This document shows positions 9,167-51,398 of a stretch of DNA of 64,000 bases, piece after piece (position 1 is the stretch's first letter; every line of letters begins with the position of its first letter). This stretch comes from Giardia intestinalis. Its lineage: Eukaryota. The position numbers and the translations under genes are program-made. The DNA is taken from the NCBI GenBank assembly GCA_000002435.2, contig CM018792.1. One strand, 5' to 3'. The notes beneath the pieces are model-generated. The model did no database searches. It was not told the DNA's origin and saw only the letters and a list, made by a program, of their open reading frames with translations.

Positions 9167-11098
9167 GTGCAGGGCCGGGGCGTCCCGGTCGACGGCTTCT
9201 GCCGGCCCCCCGGCTCCATCCAGGCCGCGGCAGCCGGGTGCACCAAAGCGGGTGGGGCTGCCCTCGACAAGACGGCAGCCACCTGCGGGAAGTGCGGCGA
9301 CGGGTACTTCCTCTTCATGGGCGGGTGCTACAACAAGGATGCACACCCTGGCAGTGACATATGCACACAGGCTGAGGGAGGACTGTGCACTGAGTGTAAT
9401 ACAAAGAACGGCCTGTTCAAGAACCCGGCTGCAGCACCGAAGCCTGGTAATGAGTGCATTCTGTGCTGGGACACGGTGGGAGATGGCGCGACAAAGGGAG
9501 TAGAGAACTGCGCCACATGTACAGCACCGGGGAATGCAGGAGTAGCTACATGTGATACCTGTCAAGATGGATACTACAAGGACTCTCTGGTATGTATGCA
9601 GTGTGATCAGTCTTGTCTGACCTGCGATGGAAGTGGTCCGAATCAGTGCACCTCTTGTAAGGAGGGGAAGTACCTGAAAGGGACTGAGTGTGTAGACAAA
9701 GGTACGTGTAAGACTGACTACTACCCCGATGACACTAGCATGACCTGCGTTGCCTGTAGCACCATACAAGATTGCACAGCATGCACAATGGACCAGTCCA
9801 CGGGGAAGCCAAAGTGCACTAACTGCGGTAGTCAGAAGATCCCCAGGACGACCCTCGACGGGACCTCGACCTGTGTGGAAAATTCTTATGCTGGGTGTCA
9901 AGGCACAGACAAGGAGCTGTTCATGAAGGAGGACCAACCGGAGTGCCTGCTGTGTGGAGATGCTACAACGGGAACAGATCCGAAAGATAAAGGCGTCGCT
10001 AATTGTAGGACATGCACTAAAGCCAGCGCTACTGGAGCCGCACCGGTCTGTGAGACATGCAAGGAAGGATACATTAAGAATGGAAATGGTGCGGGCGCCA
10101 CGTGTGAGGCTTGTCATCAGAACTGTGCCACATGTTCTGAAGCTACGACAGAAAATAAGTGCCTGACCTGCAAAGAGGGGTTCTTCCTGGCCGGCACCGG
10201 CGAAGGAAAGTGCATCTCGTGCGAGAATGGTAATGATAGTGGCTACAGCGGGCTTGCAGGATGCCTCTCTTGCACAGCCCCAGCCGCCCCGGGCCCGGCC
10301 AGCTGCAACCGCTGCAAGATCGGCTACACGCTACAGGGAACAACGTGTGTGAAGACCTGCGAGGATGAGACTGCCTGTGGGGGGACCTCTGGGGCCTGTG
10401 ATGCCATAGTGATCGGTGCCAATGGAAAGGAGCTTCACTACTGTTCCTATTGTGGAGAGGCTAATAAGTATCCTATCAACGGTGTCTGTGTTAGTACTGG
10501 TAATGAAAATGGGAATACTTGTGCTAAAGGTGTATGTACACAGTGCACTACGGGATACTTTATGTACATGGGAGGCTGTTATAAGGTGACAGAGGTGCCG
10601 GGTAAGTCCATGTGCACAAAGGCAGGCGATGGTGTCTGCACAGAGGCGGCAGCCGGGTACTTCATCCCTCCCTCGCCCACCAAGGACAAGCAGTCCGTGT
10701 TGGCATGTAGTAACCCCCTTGGTGTCGAGCTGGCTGGTCAGAAGGCATACGTGGGGGTGGATGGCTGTTCACAGTGTACAGCCCCAACAGCTCCATCTGA
10801 TGCTGGCATGACCCCCGCTGTGTGTACCTCCTGTGACAGTGATAGGAAGCCCAACAAGGATGGCAGTGGGTGTGTGCTGTGCTCTGTGAGTGACTGCAAG
10901 AGCTGTGTGGTGGATGATGTGTGTGGGGAGTGTGTTGATGGATACAGTCTAGACAATGGTAAGTGTGTGTCTATGAGCACCAACAGGAGCGGGCTCAGCA
11001 CTGGTGCCATAGCAGGGATCTCCGTGGCTGTGGTCGTCGTCGTGGGGGGCCTCGTGGGCTTCCTCTGCTGGTGGTTCCTGTGTAGGGGGAAGGCGTGA
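9167..11098 (+). CDS. variant-specific surface protein (VSP); 5' end appears disrupted, so possibly a pseudogene
   Basis: Many CxxC motifs, two GGCY motifs (FLFMGGCY, YFMYMGGCY), a C-terminal TM helix (IAGISVAVVVVVGGLVGFLCWWFL) and the invariant CRGKA* tail. AGTGAAC follows 8 nt after the stop. The codon at 9167 is GTG, not ATG. A signal-peptide-like segment (SLLIPLFVVSALAVTYQTGKCE...) lies upstream at ~9072-9165 in another frame with no ATG. Confidence 0.75.
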   Translation: MQGRGVPVDGFCRPPGSIQAAAAGCTKAGGAALDKTAATCGKCGDGYFLFMGGCYNKDAHPGSDICTQAEGGLCTECNTKNGLFKNPAAAPKPGNECILCWDTVGDGATKGVENCATCTAPGNAGVATCDTCQDGYYKDSLVCMQCDQSCLTCDGSGPNQCTSCKEGKYLKGTECVDKGTCKTDYYPDDTSMTCVACSTIQDCTACTMDQSTGKPKCTNCGSQKIPRTTLDGTSTCVENSYAGCQGTDKELFMKEDQPECLLCGDATTGTDPKDKGVANCRTCTKASATGAAPVCETCKEGYIKNGNGAGATCEACHQNCATCSEATTENKCLTCKEGFFLAGTGEGKCISCENGNDSGYSGLAGCLSCTAPAAPGPASCNRCKIGYTLQGTTCVKTCEDETACGGTSGACDAIVIGANGKELHYCSYCGEANKYPINGVCVSTGNENGNTCAKGVCTQCTTGYFMYMGGCYKVTEVPGKSMCTKAGDGVCTEAAAGYFIPPSPTKDKQSVLACSNPLGVELAGQKAYVGVDGCSQCTAPTAPSDAGMTPAVCTSCDSDRKPNKDGSGCVLCSVSDCKSCVVDDVCGECVDGYSLDNGKCVSMSTNRSGLSTGAIAGISVAVVVVVGGLVGFLCWWFLCRGKA

Positions 11099-29823: not shown

Positions 29824-32616
29824 CTACGTGCTCATCCGCTGCTGTCTTCTTTCCTGCTCTTTTGCAGCTCGACGAAGCTGCTTGCGACGAAGCTTTGCAA
29901 AGACGATCATTTCAGCCCTCACCTTACGCAGCATTATTGCGCCCAGGGCTATGTTGACTAGCACCAAGCAGCCCCCTAGTGTAAAAGTGATCACGTAGAC
30001 AATTGAGTAATTTGTGGATTGGATGCTCGTCATGGTCACAAATGCAGAACGATAGGACGGATCTGTCTGGTCACGTGTTCCTGTTCCATTGTATGACACG
30101 TCTGTTCCATTGAGAGGCTGAACTCGAAACCCTATGATCTGCTGGGACCGATTCTTCCATATAGCGCCTAACATTTTCTCACACAGAGCGGTAGCAGACA
30201 GAGTTGCGTCGATATCGGGGTCTGATGAGCTTCCTAATATGTAATTCGAGCACGAAAAGCAGTACTCTGTGGTGTTTAGGGAGAAGTTACCGATTTTAGA
30301 AAGCATGCCTGTTCTTACAGATAGATTCTTAGCATCGAATACCTCAACGGTCATATTCTTTGCGTAGATATCATACGAGAAAGTATCATCCTTTAGTATA
30401 TCCTCAGATGAAGGCAAGTAACGTATACTGCAGGTCGGTGAAACTGTGCTGGTCAACGTTATGCAGATTTCGCTACCTGCCACCGAGGCCACAGTGTAGT
30501 TGAAGCAGGAAGCCTCTATATTGTCCAGAAAGTATTTGGCCACTCCACTTTGAGCTGTCTCCCCTGTTCGCCAAAAGTTGAGGAGCAGACTACCACGAAG
30601 AACGCTAGAATTGATGCTCAGTGCGGTATAGAATCGCCTGAGAGCTTGCATCTGCAAAGTCTTCTCCTTGATGGTGCTTGTTTGGGACACATCTGGATAT
30701 ATAACACCGTTGAGATTGTAATACGATCCGTTAGGGTAGAAAAATAACCTGGTATTAGAAGATACTGAAAAGCGTGATATATTATACTCAAGTAGAAGCC
30801 GCTCATTTGTTACTACGTTGAGAAGCAGCATCATGACATTGACATAGTTTGTACCAGCAGGAGAGTCACACTTCCCTTCTGCAATTGCAGTTGCATTGGG
30901 GGTTAAGTCCACGAACACCATGTCAGGATTGACGTAGGCAAGAACGTGTGAGTAGCACGAGTGCATAAAGGGTGTGGACATGAAATTGAGATCAACGTTA
31001 ATCGTGACTTCAATTTCGTCCATAATAGACGTTATAGTGAAATTTCCGTGGGTCCAGGGATCCAAGAGGTAACTCTGGATGGCCGCCATGGCTGTTACAT
31101 TCTCTGCGTCTCCTAATACATAACAGTATAGGCCTGCATCAGGGTTAAAGAAGGAGGTATCCAGAGGCAGGACCTCGCTCTTGTAGTTAGATATCAGTGT
31201 GAGGGAGATAGTATGTACGGGATAATTAGAGAGAAATGGGCAAGTTCCTGTCGATTGCAGAGAGGCACAAACAGCACACACAGTGCCTTGCTCTTCCGCA
31301 TTTAGTTTGAATTGAGGATTGATGATCTGAAGCGTTGATCCAGACTCCATAAAACACTTAGAATAATCCACAGTTACGGTCTTCATGATGCTGACAGTTG
31401 CTATGGCTGAGAAGGTTGGCGTCGTCAAGGCAACGGTAGCGGCCTCTCCTGTGCGCAGTGCTTTCTTGCAATTAATCATATCATCTGCAGGGCACGTGAT
31501 GCAGATCGTAGTAGTGTTGGTATAGTTGTAGTTGAAAATTATAGACCTTATGGTTTTCTTGTACGTACTGACATTTAGCTCTAGAAGGAGGGAGGAGGGT
31601 AAACCGATCGAGCAGAGAGTGTTGCCTGTAGGTGAGAGGGTTAGACAGGCCTGTCCACTTTGGTACTCTATGTATAGCTGAGTCCCTAGATGCCAACAGT
31701 TCTCTGATCTTTGTCTGTTCACGGACAGCTGACTTTGCGTGCAGACCCCAGTTATTTCCTGGCACAAGTATCCTGCATCACAGTCATCGTTGTTGGTGCA
31801 TTTATACTTGCAAACACCGTTGAAGTTCTGTTGGCCAGAAGGACATGGATTGGTGCGCAATGTAGAGCTCTCAACTCTATCGTAGCAAAATCCATCAATT
31901 GCGACTTGATTCTGCTTTGAGCATGCGCCAGTAGCTTTGTCTGGAAGGTCCCTACAACCCCCATCTGGCGCGCACCTGTCGACTGACGCGCAAGATACAT
32001 CGTTGCACAAATAGGCACACGTTCCAATAGTGGAGCAGAGCTGTCTGCCCTCACAATTGGAATCGTCCATGCAATATTGCTGGCAGCTCCCGTTCATGCA
32101 CTTAAGCTGGACCTTCAATCCGCTTGAGCCAGAGTCAGCCTCCTTACATACCTCAGAGCTTGCGCAGACCTCGAAACAGTAGTTGCTAATGCACATCATT
32201 GGTTGCTGGCAGTCGGAGCACGTCTTCCGATACAGGCCATCTGGCGCACACAGTTCCCCCGGATTTGGCGTTCCTTTGCAGGGCCAGAAGCACTTCTTAG
32301 TTGTTAGGTTGCATTGCTTAAGGGTCTGCACTTGAGACCACTGACAGTCCGAGTCCTCCGAACACTCTATCCTACATACGTTTCCCATGCATGTCTCGCC
32401 ATTGCTCATATCACAATCAATGTCAAAGAGACACTTGGAGTAGCAGTAGGTTGAACAGATAAACGCATCGGCAGGCCTTCCCCAGCTCTTCTCGCAGTCT
32501 GCCGTCGTCGTGCACTTGGCCACGCATCTTCCACTTAGACAATACATCTCATTTGGACATTGGTCAGTGCAGACGATCACCCCAAGTGCGGTCGGTATTA
32601 GAAGAGAAAATAGCAT
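29824..32616 (-). CDS. high-cysteine EGF-like type I membrane protein (HCMP-like)
   Basis: ORF-track start is GTG. The first ATG is at 32614-32616, giving MLFSLLIPTALGVIVC.., a signal peptide. About 300 aa of Cys-rich EGF-like modules. A long ectodomain dense in N-x-S/T sequons. A single TM (FTLGGCLVLVNIALGAIML) and a short basic cytoplasmic tail. Confidence 0.7.
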   Translation of the reverse strand: MLFSLLIPTALGVIVCTDQCPNEMYCLSGRCVAKCTTTADCEKSWGRPADAFICSTYCYSKCLFDIDCDMSNGETCMGNVCRIECSEDSDCQWSQVQTLKQCNLTTKKCFWPCKGTPNPGELCAPDGLYRKTCSDCQQPMMCISNYCFEVCASSEVCKEADSGSSGLKVQLKCMNGSCQQYCMDDSNCEGRQLCSTIGTCAYLCNDVSCASVDRCAPDGGCRDLPDKATGACSKQNQVAIDGFCYDRVESSTLRTNPCPSGQQNFNGVCKYKCTNNDDCDAGYLCQEITGVCTQSQLSVNRQRSENCWHLGTQLYIEYQSGQACLTLSPTGNTLCSIGLPSSLLLELNVSTYKKTIRSIIFNYNYTNTTTICITCPADDMINCKKALRTGEAATVALTTPTFSAIATVSIMKTVTVDYSKCFMESGSTLQIINPQFKLNAEEQGTVCAVCASLQSTGTCPFLSNYPVHTISLTLISNYKSEVLPLDTSFFNPDAGLYCYVLGDAENVTAMAAIQSYLLDPWTHGNFTITSIMDEIEVTINVDLNFMSTPFMHSCYSHVLAYVNPDMVFVDLTPNATAIAEGKCDSPAGTNYVNVMMLLLNVVTNERLLLEYNISRFSVSSNTRLFFYPNGSYYNLNGVIYPDVSQTSTIKEKTLQMQALRRFYTALSINSSVLRGSLLLNFWRTGETAQSGVAKYFLDNIEASCFNYTVASVAGSEICITLTSTVSPTCSIRYLPSSEDILKDDTFSYDIYAKNMTVEVFDAKNLSVRTGMLSKIGNFSLNTTEYCFSCSNYILGSSSDPDIDATLSATALCEKMLGAIWKNRSQQIIGFRVQPLNGTDVSYNGTGTRDQTDPSYRSAFVTMTSIQSTNYSIVYVITFTLGGCLVLVNIALGAIMLRKVRAEMIVFAKLRRKQLRRAAKEQERRQQRMST

Positions 32617-32653
32617 TTTTTGGAAATGCACATGACCTAAGTTACCAGCAAGA

Positions 32654-40843: not shown

Positions 40844-41860
40844 TCATGCACACTTGGTCTCGCCGTCTGCTGTCACCATGAAGTCACGACCCTCTTTGCA
40901 ACACATTCTTGCCGTCACATAGGGCTCCAGCATGAGGGGGTGAACCTCTATCAGCGTGTCACCTGCGCGGCGCTTAGGATACGCATATGCCTGGCGAAAG
41001 TTCACGAGGCAGTTGGGAACATCAGCAGCAAGCTCCCGAATAACCTCACGCTTCTCTTCGTTTCGCTCCTGAAGCTTCTTAATCCTGCAGTACTCTCGAT
41101 CAATCCGCTCTAGCTCCCTGAGGCTCTGCTGGTCGTGGCAACTCGCTGCAGGGACTGCTGGCCGGAACATGGTACGCGTCACGCTAGTCCTGTAGGGGTT
41201 GCAGTTAGTGTCAACTGGGCCCTCCACAATCAGGGGGCGGGGAATGTCTGGCGCTGTGGACGCACGAGTGAGGTTGAGCTTTTCTATCAGGAGTTGCTCA
41301 GGCGTTCTATTATACCTCTCATCTTGGCACTGGCAGAGTCCGTTGCAGCATCCAGTACAGTAGCAGGAGCGTTTGCACCCGCATGGCTTTGGTTTATCGG
41401 AGTTGAGGATCTCGCAGGTCTTACAACGGGTCGATGCGCCGTGTGGACACGCATCCGTGAACTCTGTCTTCCCGAAACTGGACCTGGAGATGGGGGGAAG
41501 GTCTTCAATAATGCGAGTCCCTGGTGGTGTTACCTCTAAGGGATACTGACACTGTGGACATGGGTGGTCCACGCTAAATGGGCTCTTTAAATTGTTGAGC
41601 CGTAGCTTGTTCTGGGTTGTAGTTCCTGGAGGGTGATAGATGGTCCTTGCAGATTGGTTGTTCGGCTGATCAGCAGCGTGCTGCTTGTTAGAAACCTTTT
41701 GCTGGCGACCTTGGGGATGGGTGGCCAGATGCTTATTAAAATTAAAACAGTAGCATCCCAGCCTGGGATAGATCCAGCACTTCTTGCAGTTACATGCTCC
41801 TTCGCAAAATCTGTAGCCGGGCTCCTTCAGCCGGCAATCAAGGGCAGGGTTGTAAGGCAT
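40844..41860 (-). CDS. cysteine-rich cytoplasmic protein, paralog A of a 4-gene tandem family (unknown function)
   Basis: ORF-track start is TTG. The first ATG is at 41858-41860 (MPYNPALDC..), preceded by aaaaataaaaATG. No signal peptide. Modules: CNCKKCWIYPRLGCYC, DHPCPQC, PCGCKRSCYCTGCCNGLCQCQ, and RQAYAYP near the C-terminus. Confidence 0.55.
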   Translation of the reverse strand: MPYNPALDCRLKEPGYRFCEGACNCKKCWIYPRLGCYCFNFNKHLATHPQGRQQKVSNKQHAADQPNNQSARTIYHPPGTTTQNKLRLNNLKSPFSVDHPCPQCQYPLEVTPPGTRIIEDLPPISRSSFGKTEFTDACPHGASTRCKTCEILNSDKPKPCGCKRSCYCTGCCNGLCQCQDERYNRTPEQLLIEKLNLTRASTAPDIPRPLIVEGPVDTNCNPYRTSVTRTMFRPAVPAASCHDQQSLRELERIDREYCRIKKLQERNEEKREVIRELAADVPNCLVNFRQAYAYPKRRAGDTLIEVHPLMLEPYVTARMCCKEGRDFMVTADGETKCA

Positions 41861-41956
41861 TTTTATTTTTAGCGGACTCCTAAGGCGGTAGCGGATAGTC
41901 AATGACTTCCCTGTTTACTGATAACGGTGAGAACACGCATTCCTTGCCCGTTATTA

Positions 41957-42817
41957 TCAATAATTTGCAGTAGCCACTCCGCTCCAATTCCGTATACTCG
42001 TGACCCGCCTGTTATTCTGGAGCATGGCGAGCTCCTTTCTACAATCTGGCTTATTAGTGAAGCTGTTGTGCCCGTATTCGAGTGGATTGCCGACGGAGAT
42101 TTCTTGTACACTGCGGGGCCGAATTAGTGAGTGGAAGTCCCGACGGTTGCCCACGGGCCCACTCCTCTGTCCATACGTATACACGTTGTCTGTTCCATTC
42201 TTCAATCTGCTTTCCATCCCTGCGTGAGCCCACGACTTCTCGTACGTGGCAGCCTGGCGAGCTCGTTCTATATCTCTGTTGCGGGACTCCCAATCGAAAA
42301 ATGCTGGAGTGCGATCCATGGACGTGAGGAAAACCTCATTAGTCTCCTGCTGGGCCCCTGTGCATCCCGCTCTGTCTGTTCCCGGAAGCTGACTCTCTTC
42401 GGGAACCCAGGGCGGATAAGGAATCGTGGCAAGGTCCATCAGACCAGAGGATGCGTGGCCACAGCATGTTTGATTCTTTGGGTGTGGAACGCACGAAAAG
42501 CGGCCCTCTATATCTAGATTGTGCGGGAACTTATAGATATATCTGTTGGGTACGGGCACTGCACAGGTTGGCCTGAGAGGCTTTATATGGCAAATGTTGG
42601 TGTGAGGATCGATCCCTTGGCACGGAAGCGCATACGGATTGAGACTATTGTAGCTGAATGTGCCGTCTCTAGGTGGTGCATTGACTTCGCCGTGATGACA
42701 TATCCCAACACACTGGCAGACTCTTTTATAGTGGTGCGCGCGATTGCAGCACGTATAACAGTCGCACTGGCCATGCTCTTCGCAGGCGGAGGAGCTGCAG
42801 TTAGGTTTTGGCCACAT
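41957..42817 (-). CDS. cysteine-rich cytoplasmic protein, paralog B of the tandem family
   Basis: ATG verified (cat 42815-42817), preceded by gggttaaaattaaATG. Modules: CDCYTCCNRAHHYKRVCQC, NQTCCGH, NPY; ends ..ANY*. Confidence 0.55.
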   Translation of the reverse strand: MWPKPNCSSSACEEHGQCDCYTCCNRAHHYKRVCQCVGICHHGEVNAPPRDGTFSYNSLNPYALPCQGIDPHTNICHIKPLRPTCAVPVPNRYIYKFPHNLDIEGRFSCVPHPKNQTCCGHASSGLMDLATIPYPPWVPEESQLPGTDRAGCTGAQQETNEVFLTSMDRTPAFFDWESRNRDIERARQAATYEKSWAHAGMESRLKNGTDNVYTYGQRSGPVGNRRDFHSLIRPRSVQEISVGNPLEYGHNSFTNKPDCRKELAMLQNNRRVTSIRNWSGVATANY

Positions 42818-42901
42818 TTAATTTTAACCCGGCCTGCGCGGGCTTCTGAGACAAAACAACCGGAGTTCATTCAGTTGACTAAAAGTTATGTGTGTCTGTT
42901 A

Positions 42902-43474
42902 TCAGCATCTCTGAAAGTCCATAGCAGGAGACGGCTGTCTCCGATTGAAGTCGGGACCACAGTGCGCCTTTATCTGTTTTGTTCGCCAGTCGTCCCAGTA
43001 AAAGCCGGTGCATCGCCCGCAGACGTACTTCTTTCCAAAGAGATCTCCTGGCTGGTAGCAGCAAGGGATAGCGTCTTCTGCTGTCCCGGCCTTGCTGCTA
43101 TGATCATTGAAAGGCAATAGATCCGAAGGTCTCAGTGCCTCATGGAACGTTGTGCATCCGTTGTTCAACCTCCACTCTTGACAGGCAAGTCCTCGGAGGG
43201 CCTCTTTATTAGCCTCACTCCTTTCTCTGTGGGCATAAGCGCGCTGTTTGTAACTGGTATAGTCGCCAAGCGTTTTGGTGTAGTTAAACGTGTTTACAGA
43301 CAGGTGTGGATCAAGCATGGCCATTGAGAAGATATCTGTTTGACAAGGCCTTGTTACTGCGTATATTGGGCAGCTCCCTCGGTGTGTGCGCAGATTCATT
43401 TTTGAAAACAGATGACCAATACTGCTGAAAGTACGCCCGGAACCGACTATGGGGTATAGTGAAATATACAGCAT
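42902..43474 (-). CDS. cysteine-rich protein, weaker member C of the tandem family (the real start may be the internal ATG at 43397-43399)
   Basis: ATG at 43472-43474 verified but lacks an A/T-rich leader. The internal M26 has tgttttcaaaaATG. Contains KQRAYAHRE and a C-terminal PCCYQPGDLFGKKYVCGRC module. Confidence 0.4.
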   Translation of the reverse strand: MLYISLYPIVGSGRTFSSIGHLFSKMNLRTHRGSCPIYAVTRPCQTDIFSMAMLDPHLSVNTFNYTKTLGDYTSYKQRAYAHRERSEANKEALRGLACQEWRLNNGCTTFHEALRPSDLLPFNDHSSKAGTAEDAIPCCYQPGDLFGKKYVCGRCTGFYWDDWRTKQIKAHCGPDFNRRQPSPAMDFQRC

Positions 43475-43719
43475 GAGATTCTAGCATGCCAACTGAACCC
43501 TTTTATAGGATTTCCTTACAGACTAGAAGATATAAGGGTAGACCGTAAGACTTAGACTGCTGCTGTATGCCAATTCAATCCAGGGCTCGTCTACTCATAT
43601 AACCATTTTGCTGTAAGGCTTCGTTTGCTCTCAGATTGACGTCCTCTCATCCGGAAAGTTTGATGACGACAATTTCCAAATTGATAGATTGTTCAGTACA
43701 ATTCAAGAGAACATTTACA

Positions 43720-44646
43720 TTAATAGTTTCCTTTCCACGTTCTGTGAAAGTGTGCTGCTGGCTTGGAACCTGTGAGCGACCAATCGAGCATGTGCTGCCT
43801 TTGGGTGTTCTTGGCTTGAAGCGCGTGCACATATGCCTGATCACGTTTCGAGTCAACAAGATCGCACGTTTGGGATGTGTAAGACACGTTTGCAATGTCC
43901 GTTGATTTATAGGGATTGTATAGATGGATTCTTCCAGATCTTAGATGAGGGCTAAGCGAGGTATATAAAGCTTGAGTCGGAACATCATACCAGCTGTCTC
44001 CGCGGGAGGTTTGAAGAATGGGTGGTTCATTTGGATTGACAACGTAACGGGTAGTTGTCTTCAGAGGACAGGTAGTATAATACTTCTCTTGCTTGCGTGC
44101 ATTCGCTGATTCCGTGAAAGTAATGGCCTTTTGTGGAAGACTGCATACATAAACGGGACGTGAAGCTTGTGCATTTAATGTACCTCTTGCACATCTGGGA
44201 TTTCTTCGCATTGTTTGTGCAAATCCTTGTCTTGTATTAGGACGCCTGCCGTGCGCCTCTGCACAGGCCTCGCAACAGGGGTGGTCTGGATCGAAGACCT
44301 CGCCGCAGCATCCCAGTGCGCCCTCCCCGAAGGCACGGGGGCCAGGCCTGGGGCTGCACTGGGAGAAGCTGCGCGGCGGGCAGCCCGGGTCGATGCACGG
44401 ACGGCCGTTCTCGATGGGGTCGATGGCCTGCCACTCGGGGTCGAGGGCGCGGCGGGCCATGCGGCGGCGCTCAAAGGCGAGGTACTGGTTGACGTCGTCC
44501 TGGGTGACATTGTTGTTCGGGGGGCAGTGGCACCCGTGCCTCTCCCAGTTGGGACACTCGCAGCACTTGCAGGGATTCAGCGTGGTGACCCCGCAGTATC
44601 TAGGGCCGTCCTCCTGCCTGTGGAGCGCGGGTCTGGCGGAAAACAT
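43720..44646 (-). CDS. cysteine-rich cytoplasmic protein, paralog D of the tandem family; its N-terminal half is encoded by a GC-rich island
   Basis: ATG verified (cat 44644-44646; cttaaaaATG). Modules: CKCCECPNWERHGCHC, DHPCCEAC, NPY, RDQAYVHAL; ends ..GNY*. Confidence 0.55.
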   Translation of the reverse strand: MFSARPALHRQEDGPRYCGVTTLNPCKCCECPNWERHGCHCPPNNNVTQDDVNQYLAFERRRMARRALDPEWQAIDPIENGRPCIDPGCPPRSFSQCSPRPGPRAFGEGALGCCGEVFDPDHPCCEACAEAHGRRPNTRQGFAQTMRRNPRCARGTLNAQASRPVYVCSLPQKAITFTESANARKQEKYYTTCPLKTTTRYVVNPNEPPILQTSRGDSWYDVPTQALYTSLSPHLRSGRIHLYNPYKSTDIANVSYTSQTCDLVDSKRDQAYVHALQAKNTQRQHMLDWSLTGSKPAAHFHRTWKGNY

Positions 44647-44700
44647 TTTTAAGTTGCCCAGAGCGCCGGCCCCAGCTTCACAGGAGGGAGACGTGGGGGA

Positions 44701-45633
44701 CTACTCTTTAGGCATATCAGTCAGAAGAGAATGCAGCGTTTCTGCTGCAGCCAACTGCTGATGGATACTACTAACAGCTCTGCTCACTGTACTTTCAGAA
44801 TCAACACCATTGACCCCTGTCTTGCGTTGTTCTAATATAATTTGCTCAAGGGAGTGTTGAAGGTTTTGCAGATAATGATGTATAGCCTTTGTCTGTTGAT
44901 CAATCTTGCTTGTGTTGGTAGCAATTGTATCTTCAAATTTATTCACCCGGTCTAGTGCGGACTGCAGCCGTGGTTTTTGAGCCTGCTCCTGCTTAAGTTG
45001 CAATTCGAGGTCTTCAATACGAGCCTGCAGTTCAGCAATCTGAGTTGATTGCTCGTTAAGTCTTGTCTGTATCTTCCTTAGAAGTTTGTTAGCAATGGCT
45101 GATCGGGACAGTAATCTTTGTGTCCTCTTCTGTTCTGTATTTATTGAGTGAACGATGTTATCTATAAGCTCATGTCGATAATCCATCTCCTTCTTGACAT
45201 CTTCAAGCAGCTTGTTCTTTATCCCCTCTATCCGTCCGTCCCTATCATTTAAAAGCTTGTGGACAATCGGTTCTACTTTTTCGCGATCGAAAACCATGGT
45301 TTGTTGGTTGGGGCTGATCAAGTCAGAGATAGATAATGGTCTTTGCAGCTCAGAACGCTGGTTGAGATCTTGATCCCTTGTGGGGGATGCATGGTAGATA
45401 GTGCGGCTTGGATGTCTTGCCCCAATGTCCTGCAGGCTTCTGCGAACGGCACTTAGATGCCCAAATGCCGGTGACTGTATTCTAGGTATGAGAGTGGAAG
45501 GAACTTGAGAAGTGTCTTTCACGGGACTTCTGGTCGTTTGAAGAGGTGTATTAGTACATCCACAACTAGTGTACCGGACGTGGTGAGGTTGGCGCGGATC
45601 CTGTGTGCCAATAACACTCTTAGCACGATACAT
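44701..45633 (-). CDS. coiled-coil protein (~310 aa), hypothetical
   Basis: ORF track 44701..45753 overlaps the divergent helicase gene. In-frame ATGs are at 45664-45666 and 45631-45633; the latter leaves a 25-bp A/T spacer. Heptad-rich (..LQARIEDLELQLKQEQAQKPRLQSALDRVNKFEDT..). Confidence 0.45.
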   Translation of the reverse strand: MYRAKSVIGTQDPRQPHHVRYTSCGCTNTPLQTTRSPVKDTSQVPSTLIPRIQSPAFGHLSAVRRSLQDIGARHPSRTIYHASPTRDQDLNQRSELQRPLSISDLISPNQQTMVFDREKVEPIVHKLLNDRDGRIEGIKNKLLEDVKKEMDYRHELIDNIVHSINTEQKRTQRLLSRSAIANKLLRKIQTRLNEQSTQIAELQARIEDLELQLKQEQAQKPRLQSALDRVNKFEDTIATNTSKIDQQTKAIHHYLQNLQHSLEQIILEQRKTGVNGVDSESTVSRAVSSIHQQLAAAETLHSLLTDMPKE

Positions 45634-45658
45634 GACGCTCGGAAATATAAAAGCACCT
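45634..45658. promoter_or_regulatory. A/T-rich bidirectional initiator (gacgctcggaaatataaaagcacct) between the divergent coiled-coil gene and the DEAD-box helicase gene
   Basis: CATG at 45631-45634 and ATG at 45659. The helicase ORF-track start at 45605 is GTG. Confidence 0.4.
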
Positions 45659-47458
45659 ATGTTCATTCGCAACCGTCCCTCGCCACTGCCACTAAACACA
45701 CCTGAACCACAGCTTCGCAGAGCCTTGCCAACAGAGAGTGACGCAAAGAGCACTTCATTGAATGGTCTCCTTCAGGAGCTCCACAATGCAGATAGGAGAG
45801 ACAGTACCCCACACGGTGATAGCGCCTCGACCCAGATAGGGCACTCTAGCTTTGAATATCTGGATCTGAAAAGGACCGCACAACTACGAGCACAGGCATC
45901 TCAGACTCGTCTTGCCGAGAGGCTGACAGCGTCAATCTCCGCGGCCGAGGAAGCCCATCCTCTGGGACACAGTTCCATGCCCCTTCCTTCCATGCCGGAT
46001 AGGTCAGATGAATTGAACTCCGACGATTTCCACATTTCTGACTTCTTTGATGAAGCTTCATCCAAGCACAAACACACCGTTGTTAAAGCGGCAATATCCT
46101 CATGGAACCAGCTTCCTGGATTTACTACAGACCTCTTTCAGGGGATGATACGCTCAGAATATACGCAGTTGACTCCTGTGCAGACAGTGGTCCCCATGTT
46201 GCTTGTTCATGGCTATAATGTTATCTGCTCGGCTCCAACAGGGTCAGGGAAAACCCTTGCATTCCTCGTCCCACTTATAATTCACATGCAGCGGGTAAGA
46301 CTCATGTGGCCTGATGACCCCAATTTGCAAAGTACCTGTTATGCGTTGGTGCTGACGCCGACCCGCGAGCTTGCGATGCAAATACACTCTGTCTTGCTCG
46401 AGATTATTAGCCAATCTAGCATCACTCTGACAACATCTCTCCTAATAGGCGGCTACACACCCACTGAGATGCATCCCAATGTCATCGTCGGTGTGCCAGG
46501 AAAGGTGGAACACTTTGTTCTGGGATATAACTCTCACAAGTACTCCTTGAGGAAGTGCTCGTATATCGTCCTGGATGAGCTGGACGAGCTCTTAGACGCT
46601 GGGTTTATAGAGCAGGTGTCTACGATACTAAAGGTATGTGCACGTGATAAGCAGATCGTCGGCACGACAGCCACACTCAGCAAGCAGGCCCATAAAGTAG
46701 TAGAAGATGCTGGGCTGATTAATAGAGACTGCTTGAGAAAAACCTTTAAGTGCGCAATGGCTGGAAGTGTTTTGCAGCCAAACGTGCGGATTGCACAGAT
46801 ATTCGTGGAGTTTAGCTCTTCGTTATTGGGGAACCAGACTAGTCTATCAGTGGCAACGACCAATCCACTACTTCCGGATCCGTCCACTTATCTTTCAAAG
46901 CAAGAGATCTTGGCGAGTATCCTTCAGGTCCACTATAGTACACGGCCGACCAGCCAAACGATTATCTTCCTGGCATCTAAAGAGAATGTGGACAGCCTAC
47001 TAGAGTACCTGCTGAGGTCTAAAGCTAAAGACTCTTATTCTGCTTTATATCACTGTGAAGTAGCGGCGTTCCATAGTGGTCAGGAACAACAAAAGCGTAC
47101 CACAGTTATATCGCGTTTCCGGGCCAATCAAATACAAATACTGATCACTACTAGTGGGGGTGGCAGAGGCCTTGACTTTCCTTCTGTCTGCCTGATTATT
47201 AACTACGACATTCCCCGATGCGCTGAGTACTATGTTCACCAGATCGGCCGAACTGCACGCGGAATGGCCACAGGTACAGCACTCACCCTTGTTGATTTGA
47301 ACGATGATGTAAAGTATTTGGCAGAACTGGCTGTGCGTGTGGCAGGCGTGCGGAAGCGACTGAGCAAAGATGCGACTTATAAAACTAATGGTATGCCCCT
47401 CCCTCCTTCCTTTAATCAAGAACATAACACACTAAGACTGACCCTTTGCATCAGATGA
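45659..47458 (+). CDS. DEAD-box-type ATP-dependent RNA helicase (motif II variant DELD)
   Basis: In-frame ATGs at 45632 and 45659; aatataaaag precedes 45659. Motifs: Q (LTPVQ), I (APTGSGKTLAF), Ia (TPTRELA), II (VLDELDEL), III (TATLS), V (ILITTSGGGRGLDF) and VI (HQIGRTARG). Confidence 0.8.
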   Translation: MFIRNRPSPLPLNTPEPQLRRALPTESDAKSTSLNGLLQELHNADRRDSTPHGDSASTQIGHSSFEYLDLKRTAQLRAQASQTRLAERLTASISAAEEAHPLGHSSMPLPSMPDRSDELNSDDFHISDFFDEASSKHKHTVVKAAISSWNQLPGFTTDLFQGMIRSEYTQLTPVQTVVPMLLVHGYNVICSAPTGSGKTLAFLVPLIIHMQRVRLMWPDDPNLQSTCYALVLTPTRELAMQIHSVLLEIISQSSITLTTSLLIGGYTPTEMHPNVIVGVPGKVEHFVLGYNSHKYSLRKCSYIVLDELDELLDAGFIEQVSTILKVCARDKQIVGTTATLSKQAHKVVEDAGLINRDCLRKTFKCAMAGSVLQPNVRIAQIFVEFSSSLLGNQTSLSVATTNPLLPDPSTYLSKQEILASILQVHYSTRPTSQTIIFLASKENVDSLLEYLLRSKAKDSYSALYHCEVAAFHSGQEQQKRTTVISRFRANQIQILITTSGGGRGLDFPSVCLIINYDIPRCAEYYVHQIGRTARGMATGTALTLVDLNDDVKYLAELAVRVAGVRKRLSKDATYKTNGMPLPPSFNQEHNTLRLTLCIR

Positions 47459-50203
47459 TCCCAGGTGGTAATCAGCGATAACATTCGCTACACGCCCTAT
47501 TTTCTCACGAAGTAGATCAATCGTTGTGCCAATGAGCTTCAACGAAGTTTCTTTTTTATGAAGATTTTCGTTATCCAACCAGAGCTTCTGAACCTGTTCG
47601 AAGCAACGAAGAGAGTCGGCGAGAAGGCCATGCTTTATAACAGGATCACAGGTCGGAAGCTGGGAAAGAAGTTTAGCTGTTTCAAAAATGCATGTCTGCA
47701 TTGAATCGCGATCATCGAATGTCAAAAATTTCATAATCTCATCTTTGGAAAACTCCTTTCGCTTGAAGTGGTATTCTTGAAGTAGTCGTGCACGAGAGTC
47801 CGCCTCATACGTTTTGCAGACAGCCCTCCATGCCTCAATTGCTCGACTGCAATGCGCAGCGACTGTACTAATGAGGACAGAATCTTTATCTGGCAGAGGA
47901 TCTATCTGCTTAAGTTGTAATTGCGCAGCGTACTCCATGTCTTCAGTAAGCCTCTTGAGGTACGGGTTACATGCGATATCTCTGCTCACAATGTGATAGA
48001 TCGCAGTCCTGGCTTCTGCCACCTCCACCTGCAAAGAAGCAATAAGCTTGCTGTAGTGGTCTAAGGAAAGTTCAGGGATGACCTTTTCAAGGGTTGTACA
48101 GCGTCTGGTATGTAGCTTAATTAGAGGAGTATAGCTGACCTTCTCTGCCTCTTCTGAGGTAGCGCTGTTAGTCAAAAAATCAAGTCGTGCCTCTTCATAG
48201 TAGGCATAAATCTGATGTAAAGTTGAGATATCTAAAAGAATTTGGCAGTGATCGGTCACAAATCCATCAAGAATGAAGTATCGTGATGCAGCTATGAACT
48301 GTCGGTATGAGTCATAGAACAATGTTCGTACAAGCGGCTCTGCAAGGAAAAGATTCTGAAGCTTTGGTGTTGTGACCTTCTCGCCACTCTTCTCATCAGT
48401 TTCACTCTCAGGATCAACGTCTCCTTTGGTTTGCAGTCCCAGCTTGCGAAGCTGTCGTTTTGCTGCTGCTTCCAGAGTTGCCTCCAGGTCAGGTGCGAGC
48501 AGCAAATCATAGAGTTCCCTGACAGAGGAGACACACTCATCCTGCGATATCTGGCAAACGGCCTTGATTTGCTTATGTGCTAGCTCCTTATCATCGTTGC
48601 TCAGATCTTCTGATGATGTGTACTGAATTTTCATTTGCTCTCTACGAGCCTCCAAGAGCAGTTCTCGGCGTTGGTAGCTATTAGATAATATCTGAGAATA
48701 AAGGCGAGCACGTTCCGTGCGGATTTGGGCTAGCACTTCTCGAGCCGTGTCAAGGCTAAGGATGCTCCGAATCACGGCTACAGACTCCACCTTTTGCCTA
48801 GCTCTAAACTGCAAGTATGCTACATCATCTTCTGGCATATTTTCATTTGCGGGTAAATCCTTTACATACTGTGCTCTCTCCTTTGGCCCGTATTCAAAGA
48901 GGACTTCCTCTGCAACATCAATCAATGTAAAACTGGGCCTGAAAATGTTATTTGTCGTATAGTATTTCTGCAATGTGAGACAGTTTATTATGAAATCTTG
49001 CGGGTCGAAGTCTGGATTGAGAGCTCGCTGCTTATACTGTCTCGAGATGGTCATACCACAATACTCAGCAGATTGGCACGGGCTATCCTCTCCGTAAACC
49101 TGTGCTAAAAAGTATATTGTATAGGTATTCAAACTAGAAATCATCTTACTGCTGCAGACAGGAAGGATGAAGGAGAGCTTGTCGGAACAGCTCCGTTGAA
49201 AGAAAGGATGAGCACTGTTTGGAAGGTACAGCATGTGGGTATGCAGCTCCTTCCCGTCGCCATCGTTCAAAGGTTCTGTAATCAGAAATGGATCATCGTA
49301 ATCAAAGAGGCACATAGCTGACTCTGCACTCTTTAGTATATTGAGTGCCAGCTTGCGATTCTCTCTGTTAGCCCATATTACGCCTAAGTAATTCAATGCT
49401 AGGACGTAGAATGGCAGAAGCTGAATCTGTATCGTGGTTGTCATGGCAGGAGCACCAGCGCAATCCCCGACGCAGGACAGCTTAAGAAGTGTTTCCTCCA
49501 TTCCAAATTTGGGAGGCTTTGCATGCTTAACGTCGTCGCTTTCCTCTACTGCACTTGTTACCTCTGTAATAAAGGCAGCATCAGGCTCCGTTGTGTTCTG
49601 CGTAAGTGCATCAAGATCCATGCTACCCAGGCCATCCACTAAAGTAGTCGCGTATGCAGCTGATGGGTCAGTAGGGTCTAGCTCCGGATGGGAGGATTCG
49701 TCTGTGTCCTTAAGATTGGCCATTAGCTTTTCATGAGTACATGCTGCTTGATGTGTTTCGGGGTGTAGGACGTTAGCTAGCTTCAAGTAGTCGTTATAAC
49801 TGTCCGCAAAGAAGGACCAAAATTGAGTAAATCGCTTCTCTGTTTTTACCGGTGGCTGGAACGACAAGAAAGACGGCGCCCCAGAGAATAGCGAGTGGAT
49901 ATTCAAGGATTTAATAATATCGGCATTTTGGAAGCGAGCCACAAAATAGACGACAGCGGTGAATAGAAAGTCTATTGCAGCGGTAGGCTCATCTGTCTCT
50001 GCGGCGATTTTTCCTCGAAGAGCGTAGAGCACGGCTTGGAGGTCGAGTGTATACTCACTTTCATTTATTCCTAGTTGCTCCAAAAGGGCTTCTAACCAAC
50101 GCACAGCCTCATATTTCGGCTTATACGGATCACTTTCTGGCCCTACCTCATCTATTAGGGAAGCAATCCTATCCAAGCTCTCTCTCAGTTGATCAGATGC
50201 CAT
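47432..50203 (-). CDS. KIF1-binding protein (KBP/KIFBP)-like TPR-type protein
   Basis: Upstream ATG at 50288-50290 would overlap the neighbouring gene. The ATG at 50201-50203 (MASDQ..) sits in the palindromic catttttaaaatg and puts PYKPKY ~26 residues from the N-terminus, as in metazoan KBP (PYKSKY). Shared motifs recalled from metazoan KBP: IYFLAQVY and ILDGFVTDH. The stop at 47432 overlaps the helicase 3' end by 27 bp. Confidence 0.5.
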   Translation of the reverse strand: MASDQLRESLDRIASLIDEVGPESDPYKPKYEAVRWLEALLEQLGINESEYTLDLQAVLYALRGKIAAETDEPTAAIDFLFTAVVYFVARFQNADIIKSLNIHSLFSGAPSFLSFQPPVKTEKRFTQFWSFFADSYNDYLKLANVLHPETHQAACTHEKLMANLKDTDESSHPELDPTDPSAAYATTLVDGLGSMDLDALTQNTTEPDAAFITEVTSAVEESDDVKHAKPPKFGMEETLLKLSCVGDCAGAPAMTTTIQIQLLPFYVLALNYLGVIWANRENRKLALNILKSAESAMCLFDYDDPFLITEPLNDGDGKELHTHMLYLPNSAHPFFQRSCSDKLSFILPVCSSKMISSLNTYTIYFLAQVYGEDSPCQSAEYCGMTISRQYKQRALNPDFDPQDFIINCLTLQKYYTTNNIFRPSFTLIDVAEEVLFEYGPKERAQYVKDLPANENMPEDDVAYLQFRARQKVESVAVIRSILSLDTAREVLAQIRTERARLYSQILSNSYQRRELLLEARREQMKIQYTSSEDLSNDDKELAHKQIKAVCQISQDECVSSVRELYDLLLAPDLEATLEAAAKRQLRKLGLQTKGDVDPESETDEKSGEKVTTPKLQNLFLAEPLVRTLFYDSYRQFIAASRYFILDGFVTDHCQILLDISTLHQIYAYYEEARLDFLTNSATSEEAEKVSYTPLIKLHTRRCTTLEKVIPELSLDHYSKLIASLQVEVAEARTAIYHIVSRDIACNPYLKRLTEDMEYAAQLQLKQIDPLPDKDSVLISTVAAHCSRAIEAWRAVCKTYEADSRARLLQEYHFKRKEFSKDEIMKFLTFDDRDSMQTCIFETAKLLSQLPTCDPVIKHGLLADSLRCFEQVQKLWLDNENLHKKETSLKLIGTTIDLLREKIGRVANVIADYHLGSSDAKGQS

Positions 50204-50210
50204 TTTTAAA
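50204..50210. promoter_or_regulatory. 7-bp A/T core (ttttaaa) of a near-palindromic bidirectional initiator CAT-TTTTAAA-ATG serving the KBP-like (-) and acid phosphatase (+) genes
   Basis: cat 50201-50203 / atg 50211-50213. Confidence 0.5.
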
Positions 50211-51398
50211 ATGCTCCTCCTACTTTGCTTCTCCCTCTGCGTCGCCACTGTATTTTCTGACGAAAAGGCTCGTTTGCTAAAGGTGTTCATTTATACCCGC
50301 CACGGGGCTCGATCCCCATACACTGCCTTTCCACGAGACAATGTATCATGGTACTGCGACGAAATCACGGCGGATTCGGTTGCCTATGCTTCTGAAGGGA
50401 TAATGCAAGAGATCGGGAAGGGTTTTCTGCATTTATACGACAAGTCAAACGTCCTTCCTGGAACCTGCTACCAAGGCCAACTAACAAGCGTTGGCTTAGC
50501 CGAACAATACCTGCTTGGAACTAAATATCGGTATAAGTACATCCATGCGCTCCGCTTTGCACCAAAAGAGTTCGATCCTAGCTTTTTCCGTTTGCGCTCC
50601 ACAGACATTACCCGGACCAGGCAGTCTTTAGCATCTCAGCTGCTAGGCTGGTATGGGGACTCTATTTCTCACAAGCATCTTCACCCAGTAATTAACATTC
50701 AAGAAAAAGACACCGATCCTCTCGCAGATCAAAGCTGGTGCATCGCCTTCTCATCAGTTAAGAAACGCCTCCAGGTTACCAATTTAGACCTTATCGCCGT
50801 CCACAGTGATCGGCTTCATGAGCTGCAAAACATACTTGGATATGGAGGAGACGAGGGAGATGACGAGTACGACTTGTGGTATACCATTTGGGATAACTTG
50901 ATAACCAGAACATGGCTTGGGATGTCTTTGCCTCAGAACGTCACATATGCAGATGTCGTCACCGGGAACAATGTTGCAGATATTTTCACTGCACTCCTTT
51001 ACTGCAATAAGGACCCCAGCGTCTCCATGTTTATGAAGCGGGCTAGAATAGGTCCTTACATTGCAGAATTGATGGGCTTACTCACCGCGGAAGACGGCCC
51101 TAGAGCTGAGAAGATTCACATCACTGCTTGCCATGACACAACCATCATGCCTCTCATGGCCACCTTTGCAGAGTCCAACTGGGACTGCAACTGGCCTCCT
51201 TATGCATCTCATATTGAGCTAGAGATTTGGGAGCACGGGTCCGAAAAGTATGTGAGGCTCTACTATATGGGCAAACGTGTTTTACCTGCTGGATGCACTG
51301 ATAGTCGCATATGTCTTCTTGACGACTTCATTAGTAAGATTCGCGAGGTGTCCGTGCCATATGAGGATTGGAATAGCATTTGTACGGTCGAGAAGTGA
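50211..51398 (+). CDS. histidine acid phosphatase (branch 2 histidine phosphatase), secreted or lumenal
   Basis: ATG verified. N-terminal signal peptide MLLLLCFSLCVATVFS. Catalytic RHGxRxP motif (YTRHGARSP). Downstream HD motif (ACHDTT). Confidence 0.8.
   Translation: MLLLLCFSLCVATVFSDEKARLLKVFIYTRHGARSPYTAFPRDNVSWYCDEITADSVAYASEGIMQEIGKGFLHLYDKSNVLPGTCYQGQLTSVGLAEQYLLGTKYRYKYIHALRFAPKEFDPSFFRLRSTDITRTRQSLASQLLGWYGDSISHKHLHPVINIQEKDTDPLADQSWCIAFSSVKKRLQVTNLDLIAVHSDRLHELQNILGYGGDEGDDEYDLWYTIWDNLITRTWLGMSLPQNVTYADVVTGNNVADIFTALLYCNKDPSVSMFMKRARIGPYIAELMGLLTAEDGPRAEKIHITACHDTTIMPLMATFAESNWDCNWPPYASHIELEIWEHGSEKYVRLYYMGKRVLPAGCTDSRICLLDDFISKIREVSVPYEDWNSICTVEK

Follow-up and report, generated by a model that had tools for sequence, protein, structure and literature searches.

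Giardia carries more than 1000 orphan genes annotated as hypothetical, and homologs in other organisms are lacking for many of the proteins at its basal bodies and axonemes (PMC4931700). Table 1 of that paper contains 49 hypothetical proteins of basal bodies and axonemes (for example GL50803_15193, _6254, and _6709). The present analysis concerns four consecutive genes, designated A, B, C, and D, within a stretch of 64,000 nucleotides of Giardia intestinalis DNA (GenBank assembly GCA_000002435.2, contig CM018792.1), which is called the window throughout and corresponds to ~1.90-1.97 Mb of chromosome 4 of G. intestinalis WB (assemblage A). Gene A is among the 49 proteins, and gene B is an equivalent entry in GiardiaDB. 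Proteins of the GiardiaDB class localised with green fluorescent protein (GFP) are, like A and B, restricted to Giardia, without Pfam domains, and found at basal bodies together with cytoplasmic axonemes or the median body. What unites that class is localisation and not sequence; the searchable literature was not found to describe the Cys clusters, the side-by-side position of A, B, and D, or the mosaic structure of a distant partner of D, designated D2.

The features new to this analysis are a Cys module common to A and D, homology between B and D2, a gene conversion tract between D and D2, and the absence of C from Giardia muris. The cluster is a modestly interesting orphan cytoskeletal set and not a new gene family, and nothing in it overturns current understanding.

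Localisation and proposed role

According to PMC4931700 (Table 1), C-terminally tagged A-GFP marks the median body, the cytoplasmic posteriolateral axonemes, and every basal body; for B-GFP, GiardiaDB (as cited in PMC11527388 S1 Table) records basal bodies and all cytoplasmic axonemes. The earlier note on this DNA, made from the letters alone, had described the four genes as having no recognisable function; this is out of date for A and B. The sequence by itself gives no function. Genes A-D do not appear in the ventral-disc proteome paper or in its supplements.

Because of the GFP localisation of A and B, the basic, Pro-rich, and extended character of the proteins, their invariant Cys clusters, and their restriction to one lineage, we hold with moderate confidence that A, B, D, and D2 (C with less certainty) are basic proteins found only in Giardia, rich in Pro and Cys and not secreted, that serve the microtubule cytoskeleton as accessory or structural components and whose Cys clusters act as metal knuckles. 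Metal, most probably Zn2+, would be bound by the Cys clusters, chiefly the 10-Cys cluster of A and the N-terminal knuckle (C-x-C-x2-C-x7-C-x-C) that A has in common with D, and each metal-bound knuckle would make a small rigid point in a chain that is otherwise extended. Short linear motifs that are conserved, together with the C-terminal helix, may then dock these chains on microtubule-based structures, the putative sites being basal bodies, cytoplasmic axonemes, and the median body. We infer the metal binding, the direct association with microtubules, and the same localisation for C and D.

Several points weigh against this cytoskeletal interpretation. GFP signal at basal bodies can mean docking and not structural membership (PMC4931700), and the literature on the gene identifiers yielded no localisation for C, D, or D2. 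A GiMlf pull-down associated with protein-quality-control foci showed mild enrichment of both B and D2 (PMC11527388), and these two proteins could simply be aggregation-prone. Metal binding by the Cys clusters is a prediction for which the structural models were unusable: the mean predicted local distance difference test score (pLDDT) from AlphaFold2 was 37.8 for A (3 sequences) and 36.7 for D (7 sequences), which is too low to interpret, so no knuckle geometry can be claimed and fold comparison is meaningless. Cross-family matches of hidden Markov models (HMMs), which cover the similarity of the N-terminal modules, were at noise level (E 0.3-2.8) on a background of 513 stop-free stretches of open reading frame (ORF) from the same genomes.

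The AlphaFold2 models suggest for both A and D a chain that is largely non-globular and has a single long C-terminal helix, and a beta-hairpin was modelled, with low confidence, only at residues 27-39 of A. The cluster offers a small testable set, namely three adjacent genes conserved to G. muris and a distant, apparently chimeric partner, with invariant Cys clusters and two members already localised. If the Cys modules are metal knuckles needed for targeting, they would offer a way into the question of how the long cytoplasmic axonemes of Giardia are built.

Gene identities, expression, and composition

The four minus-strand ORFs lie exactly where the earlier note had placed them (Table 1), and exact-sequence look-up, from which the gene identities were obtained, showed that all four are annotated hypothetical proteins; the chromosomal coordinates of the genes were taken from the supplement of PMC11527388. 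Published trophozoite mass spectrometry detected all four products (PMC11527388 supplement), with 18 peptides (60% coverage) for A, 9 (50%) for B, 2 (23%) for C, and 16 (71%) for D. A-D are real, expressed genes. The ratio of nonsynonymous to synonymous substitution rates (dN/dS) between assemblages A and B was 0.045 for gene A, 0.043 for gene B, and 0.104 for gene C, with dS saturated; since these ratios are 0.04-0.10, the three genes are under purifying selection.

The description of A-D as a cysteine-rich intracellular set was confirmed. They contain 5.3-8.0% Cys, whereas 24 other long ORFs of the window have a median of 1.7%, so that four adjacent genes stand at 3-5 times the local median; the only other window ORFs above 5% Cys were a bona fide variant-specific surface protein (VSP) and one membrane protein. 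None of the four has a hydrophobic segment, the maximum Kyte-Doolittle value over 19 residues being <0.9, and no stretch is hydrophobic enough for a signal peptide, which the earlier note had also found lacking, or for a transmembrane (TM) segment. All four proteins are basic (isoelectric point, pI, 8.3-8.9) and Pro-rich, with a Tyr content of 3.8-5.3%.

The ORF of gene C was placed correctly, but its 190-aa reading is over-extended, and the real protein begins at M26 (position 43399). This start was chosen because its ATG is preceded by an A-rich initiator, as are the starts of A, B, and D, and because the 25 codons upstream of it are not conserved in assemblage B.

Table 1 Features of the A-D cluster and its upstream edge, with positions in the window
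Feature	Position	Strand	Residues or length	Details
Gene A (GL50803_15446)	40844..41860	-	338 aa	27 Cys
A predicted long helix	41024..41131	-	residues 244-279	AlphaFold2 secondary structure, low confidence
A central cluster CKTCEILNSDKPKPCGCKRSCYCTGCCNGLCQC	41327..41425	-	residues 146-178	10 Cys, all invariant in G. muris
A N-terminal Cys module CRLKEPGYRFCEGACNCKKCWIYPRLGCYC	41747..41836	-	residues 9-38	7 Cys, all invariant in G. muris
Gene B (GL50803_15445)	41957..42817	-	286 aa	17 Cys
B conserved core, including SLNPY and YIYKFPHNLDIEGRFSC	42446..42652	-	residues 56-124	~85% identical to G. muris
B N-terminal Cys module CSSSACEEHGQCDCYTCCNRAHHYKRVCQC	42710..42799	-	residues 7-36	looser variant
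Gene C (GL50803_19834)	42902..43399 (ORF to 43474)	-	165 aa from M26; full ORF 190 aa	10 Cys
Gene D (GL50803_11604)	43720..44646	-	308 aa	19 Cys
D/D2 duplicated tract	44251..44699	-	449 bp	53 bp upstream and D codons 1-132
D N-terminal Cys module CKCCECPNWERHGCHC	44524..44571	-	residues 26-41	conserved in G. muris as CRCCECPNWAVHGCHC
Coiled-coil ORF upstream of D	44701..45753	-		syntenic with the G. muris gene directly upstream of D; edge of conserved block

Cysteine modules and other motifs

The N-terminal strings of A, B, and D had been quoted correctly by the earlier note. A and D have an identical C-x-C-x2-C-x7-C-x-C arrangement (Cys spacing 2, 3, 8, 2) with a Gly ahead of the last pair, and B has x10 for x7. 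When the window was translated in six frames into 29,045 aa of stop-free stretches, the expression C.C.{1,2}C.{7,11}C.C had exactly three matches, which fell at the N-termini of A, B, and D. The probability of a match within the first 50 residues was ~2e-4 to 6.5e-4 per protein on composition-matched shuffles, for an expression that was defined post hoc, after seeing the data. The Cys-rich cytosolic cluster and the N-terminal pattern are real and non-random.

The proposal of a shared N-terminal module stands to the extent that the pattern is confined to these three N-termini and that A and D are similar there; it does not extend to C, which has no module, or securely to B. In Smith-Waterman (SW) alignment, the B N-terminus did not exceed shuffles against the N-termini of A or D (z up to 2.3), and it aligned instead with a second Cys cluster of D and D2 (residues 108-132). 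The last C-x-C of the B module is also lost in G. muris.

The Cys residues invariant to G. muris numbered 22 of 27 in A, 13 of 17 in B, and 11-12 of 19 in D. All seven Cys of the A module and all ten of the A cluster were retained, and in the D module the first Cys (C26) is Tyr in isolate P15, with C28, C29, C31, C39, and C41 invariant. With the last Cys of the B module lost, the pattern of Cys conservation is compatible with metal sites and gives no geometry.

The remaining motifs that had been proposed to unite the genes did not survive comparison with orthologs. DHPCPQC of A lies in a segment deleted in G. muris, and DHPCCEAC of D corresponds there to DTSDGCKPPC. The QAY motif is replaced by QSNAP (A), by TLGHV (D), and, in assemblage B, by RHAHAH (C), and the NPY motif of D is DPL in G. 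muris. Since they are unconserved in orthologs, the DHPC, QAY, and D-NPY motifs are considered chance or recent.

Relationships among the four genes

Pairwise and profile alignments supported tandem paralogy in part: the N-terminal module of A and D exceeded shuffles, whereas four-way paralogy was unsupported. In SW comparisons with shuffles, A-D alone was above chance (z 3.8, 0/300), and A-B, A-C, B-C, B-D, and C-D were at chance (z -0.8 to 1.7). A matrix of orthologs gave mean z values of -0.3 to 0.6 for A-B, B-D, B-C, A-C, and C-D. The A-D similarity was reproducible over six cross-species pairs of A, D, and D2 (z 3.0-5.9). Alignment of ortholog profiles by hhalign gave E values of 0.18 (A-D), 0.35 (A-B), and 0.25 (D-B), and a combined B and D2 profile had no match above background in the C-terminal half of D or in A.

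The description of the four genes as old duplications kept in tandem was therefore only partly supported, as only the A-D N-terminal module was above chance and C matched nothing consistently. The four are not demonstrably paralogs, a simple four-copy tandem duplication is not supported, and adjacency by itself is no proof of common descent. The relationships appear instead to be mosaic, in that A weakly resembles the head of D, the head of D equals that of D2, the body of D2 resembles B, and a B-D relationship is undetectable. B is linked to the cluster only through D2, which lies outside the window.

These results bear on the alternative that the four genes are unrelated neighbours, their Cys-rich composition and N-terminal pattern being a coincidence without a common function. 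In favour of this alternative are the hhalign values of 0.18-0.35, the mean SW z of about 0 for A-B, B-C, and B-D, and the noise-level HMM matches, together with the motifs unconserved in G. muris and the lineage-specific gene C with no module. It fits poorly with a Cys content of 3-5 times the local median in four adjacent genes, with a pattern found only at three N-termini, and with the A-D N-terminal z of 3-5.9 over six ortholog pairs. It also fits poorly with the overlapping published localisations of A and B, the similar basic pI and Pro content of all the proteins, and the retention of D-B-A in G. muris, where synteny breaks just past A. A purely coincidental grouping was accordingly judged unlikely, though a serious competitor to the cytoskeletal interpretation.

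Gene D, its paralog D2, and gene conversion

A profile search with the D family identified D2 (GL50803_15605), a true paralog that lies outside the window at a distance of ~130 kb along the chromosome. Its coordinates on the WB chromosome came from the supplement of PMC11527388, and a D2 ortholog was located at L005 3357-4583. The 449-bp tract of D (Table 1) was 98.9% identical to the D2 locus (blastn; L005 3382-3830) and takes in the entire intergenic region upstream of D. The 132-aa heads of D and D2 differed at 2 of 132 positions within assemblage A, at 2 of 132 within assemblage B, and at 17-19 of 132 between the assemblages. As the heads are alike within assemblages and divergent between them, the pattern indicates ongoing gene conversion of the promoter and the coding 5' end, and the first 132 residues of D2 appear to be a gene-converted copy of the D head. 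The tract shows cleanly how a coding 5' end and its promoter can evolve in concert at two loci.

Past codon 132, similarity between D and D2 was at best marginal (SW z 5 for the WB pair only, HMM 2e-4, hhalign 0.15). The remaining ~250 residues of D2 were collinear with B, with an hhalign E of 0.0015 over 149 columns, an HMM independent E value (i-E) of 8.5e-6 for B against D2, and SW z values for B against the D2 body of up to 9.1-9.2. The blocks common to both include YIYKFPHNLDIEGRFSC in B against SYVFKTPHNDETNGRFVC in D2 and a C-terminal helix of the form ...RN..D..RR....RL..G, and the conserved core of B (residues 56-124) is homologous to D2 residues ~219-239. D2 thus looks chimeric, with a D-like head (1-132) and a B-like body. 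The long helix of A was weakly similar to the C-terminal helix of D2 (hhalign A-D2 E 0.027; HMM of D2 against A, i-E 5e-4, Z=1), and this similarity was not significant in SW shuffles.

A bolder version of the cytoskeletal interpretation would group A, B, D, and D2, perhaps along with C as a degenerate member, into an unnamed Giardia-specific modular family. In it, a new type of Cys5-7 metal knuckle would anchor extended chains to the unusual cytoplasmic axonemes and the basal bodies, where they might act as cross-linkers or lineage-specific microtubule inner proteins (MIPs), and gene conversion would reshuffle modules between loci, of which the D head on the B-like body of D2 would be an instance. 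This version is speculative and on balance doubtful.

In one assemblage B assembly (GCA_001543975.1, L002 7018-8016), the D ortholog carries two frameshifts that roughly bracket the D/D2 tract, and the annotated 332-aa QR46_1695 is out of frame for ~145 codons. Another assemblage B assembly encodes an intact 307-aa D protein (P0057). The frameshifted copy probably reflects assembly collapse of the repeat and not a pseudogene.

Conservation in other Giardia genomes

All four genes are present in assemblages B and E, and D, B, and A are present in the syntenic locus of G. muris, from which C is absent. In G. muris, D, B, and A occur in the same order and on the same strand, with a D-B gap of 22 bp. 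The orthologs are GMRT_11092 for A (49-60% identity), GMRT_11091 for B, and the gene at L001:8134-9114 for D (43% identity). The coiled-coil gene upstream of D is likewise syntenic (BLASTP E 2e-9 against L001:7548-8141), and synteny breaks immediately downstream of A. Because the D-B-A order is kept in G. muris without C, D-B-A is an ancient block, to which C was added later in the G. intestinalis lineage.

When the A profile was run exhaustively with HMMER on 1.84e9 representative proteins, Giardia orthologs alone were returned; word-indexed searches for A, D, and B, covering 5.8e9 proteins, likewise gave Giardia alone. A, B, D, and D2 are most likely specific to the genus Giardia.

Gene C had no homolog in the 20-kb syntenic G. 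muris locus. Its inclusion as a paralog was not sustained, as it has no N-terminal module, shows no significant similarity to A, B, or D (mean SW z <=0.6 in the ortholog matrix), and is missing from the G. muris array. Since it is absent from the syntenic locus, C is a young or inserted gene between two old ones, and the best explanation appears to be a later insertion in the G. intestinalis lineage that is unrelated to the others or has diverged beyond recognition. Derivation of C as a degenerate copy of the A N-terminus (C9/C19 ... YPRLGCYCFNFNKHL against C10/C19 ... DPHLSVNTFNYTKTL) was considered and set aside as too weak to claim (HMM i-E 0.006, Z=1; SW z 1.4-3.0).

Gene B (GL50803_15445) was listed, with GL50803_29796 and _14921, among the genes down-regulated in axenic growth (PMC4670223). 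The same two genes also adjoin it in the GiMlf interactor table (PMC11527388), and co-regulation of the three is possible. A 'hemocyanin' match by I-TASSER for 15445 (PMC4670223) was set aside, since non-globular proteins typically produce such artefacts.

Neighbouring genes

The coiled-coil ORF upstream of D is not Cys-rich (0.86% Cys) and had no Pfam match. Further along the window, a KIF1-binding protein homolog (Pfam KBP_C, E 1.5e-15) occupies 47432-50290 on the minus strand, which places a kinesin regulator three genes from the cluster.

Two other Cys-rich ORFs lie in the window. The 643-aa ORF at 9167-11098 on the plus strand (11.7% Cys) is a VSP (Pfam PF03302, E 2.4e-53). The 935-aa ORF at 29824-32631 on the minus strand (6.6% Cys) had no Pfam match. 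A signal-like segment lies at its N-terminus, its first third is Cys-rich, N-x-S/T sites are numerous, and the C-terminal part carries a TM segment and a basic tail; overall it resembles a high-cysteine type I membrane protein of Giardia, with no relation to A-D.

Comparison with known families and systems

Pfam scans returned no family at E up to 10 for the whole A-D proteins, for the isolated N-terminal modules of A, B, and D, or for the A central cluster, in a scan that did recognise the VSP, DEAD helicase, and KBP genes of the window. Sequence and profile searches of the PDB gave no match for whole proteins or modules, the A central cluster included. The earlier note's view that this is not a described family agrees with these results, the proteins having no Pfam domain and no relative of solved structure and being unique to Giardia. 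An alignment of the B N-terminus with the A20 zinc finger (PDB search, E ~1) was rejected as noise.

The CXC domain of tesmin/TSO1 proteins (PF03638) has nine Cys in the spacing C-x-C-x4-C-x3-Y-C-x-C-x6-C-x3-C-x-C-x2-C. Like the module of A, it is a short intracellular Cys-rich unit with C-x-C pairs, and CNCKKC...GCYCF of A superficially resembles its start, which had led the earlier note to hint at such a relationship. The module differs in having 5-7 Cys and another spacing: tolerant expressions for the full CXC spacing and for its first half found no match in A-D, neither PF03638 at E up to 10 nor any PDB chain was matched, and the GFP signals of A and B are non-nuclear. That A-D are nuclear DNA-binding proteins of the tesmin/TSO1 kind is extremely improbable and, as far as sequence tests go, refuted.

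The VSPs and high-cysteine membrane proteins of Giardia (PF03302) are Giardia-specific and Cys-rich like A-D. A-D differ from VSPs in having no signal peptide, TM segment, CRGKA tail, or PF03302 match and only 1-4 CxxC per protein.

Residues 146-178 of A, with 10 invariant Cys in 33 residues arranged as CxC, CC, and CxxC, are similarly dense to metallothioneins, and cysteine is the main low-molecular-weight thiol of Giardia. A cytosolic metal-buffering or redox role of the metallothionein type, above all for A and with the cytoskeletal GFP signal incidental, would draw on both observations. Metallothioneins are small (under ~100 aa), with a very high Cys fraction and few aromatic residues. Such a role is improbable for proteins of 165-338 aa with 5-8% Cys, many aromatic residues, long conserved non-Cys segments, and helices, which gave no Pfam match to E 10 as proteins or modules, and of which A and B have discrete cytoskeletal localisations.

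For the favoured cytoskeletal interpretation, a further comparison is with the filamentous MIPs and extended axonemal microtubule-associated proteins (MAPs) of cilia, which are basic, Pro-rich, largely non-globular chains with short motifs. Neither Pfam nor PDB searches linked A-D to these proteins by sequence, and to our knowledge Cys clusters are not typical of known MIPs. A and B resemble them in their axonemal and basal-body localisation and in being basic, Pro-rich chains with a helix.

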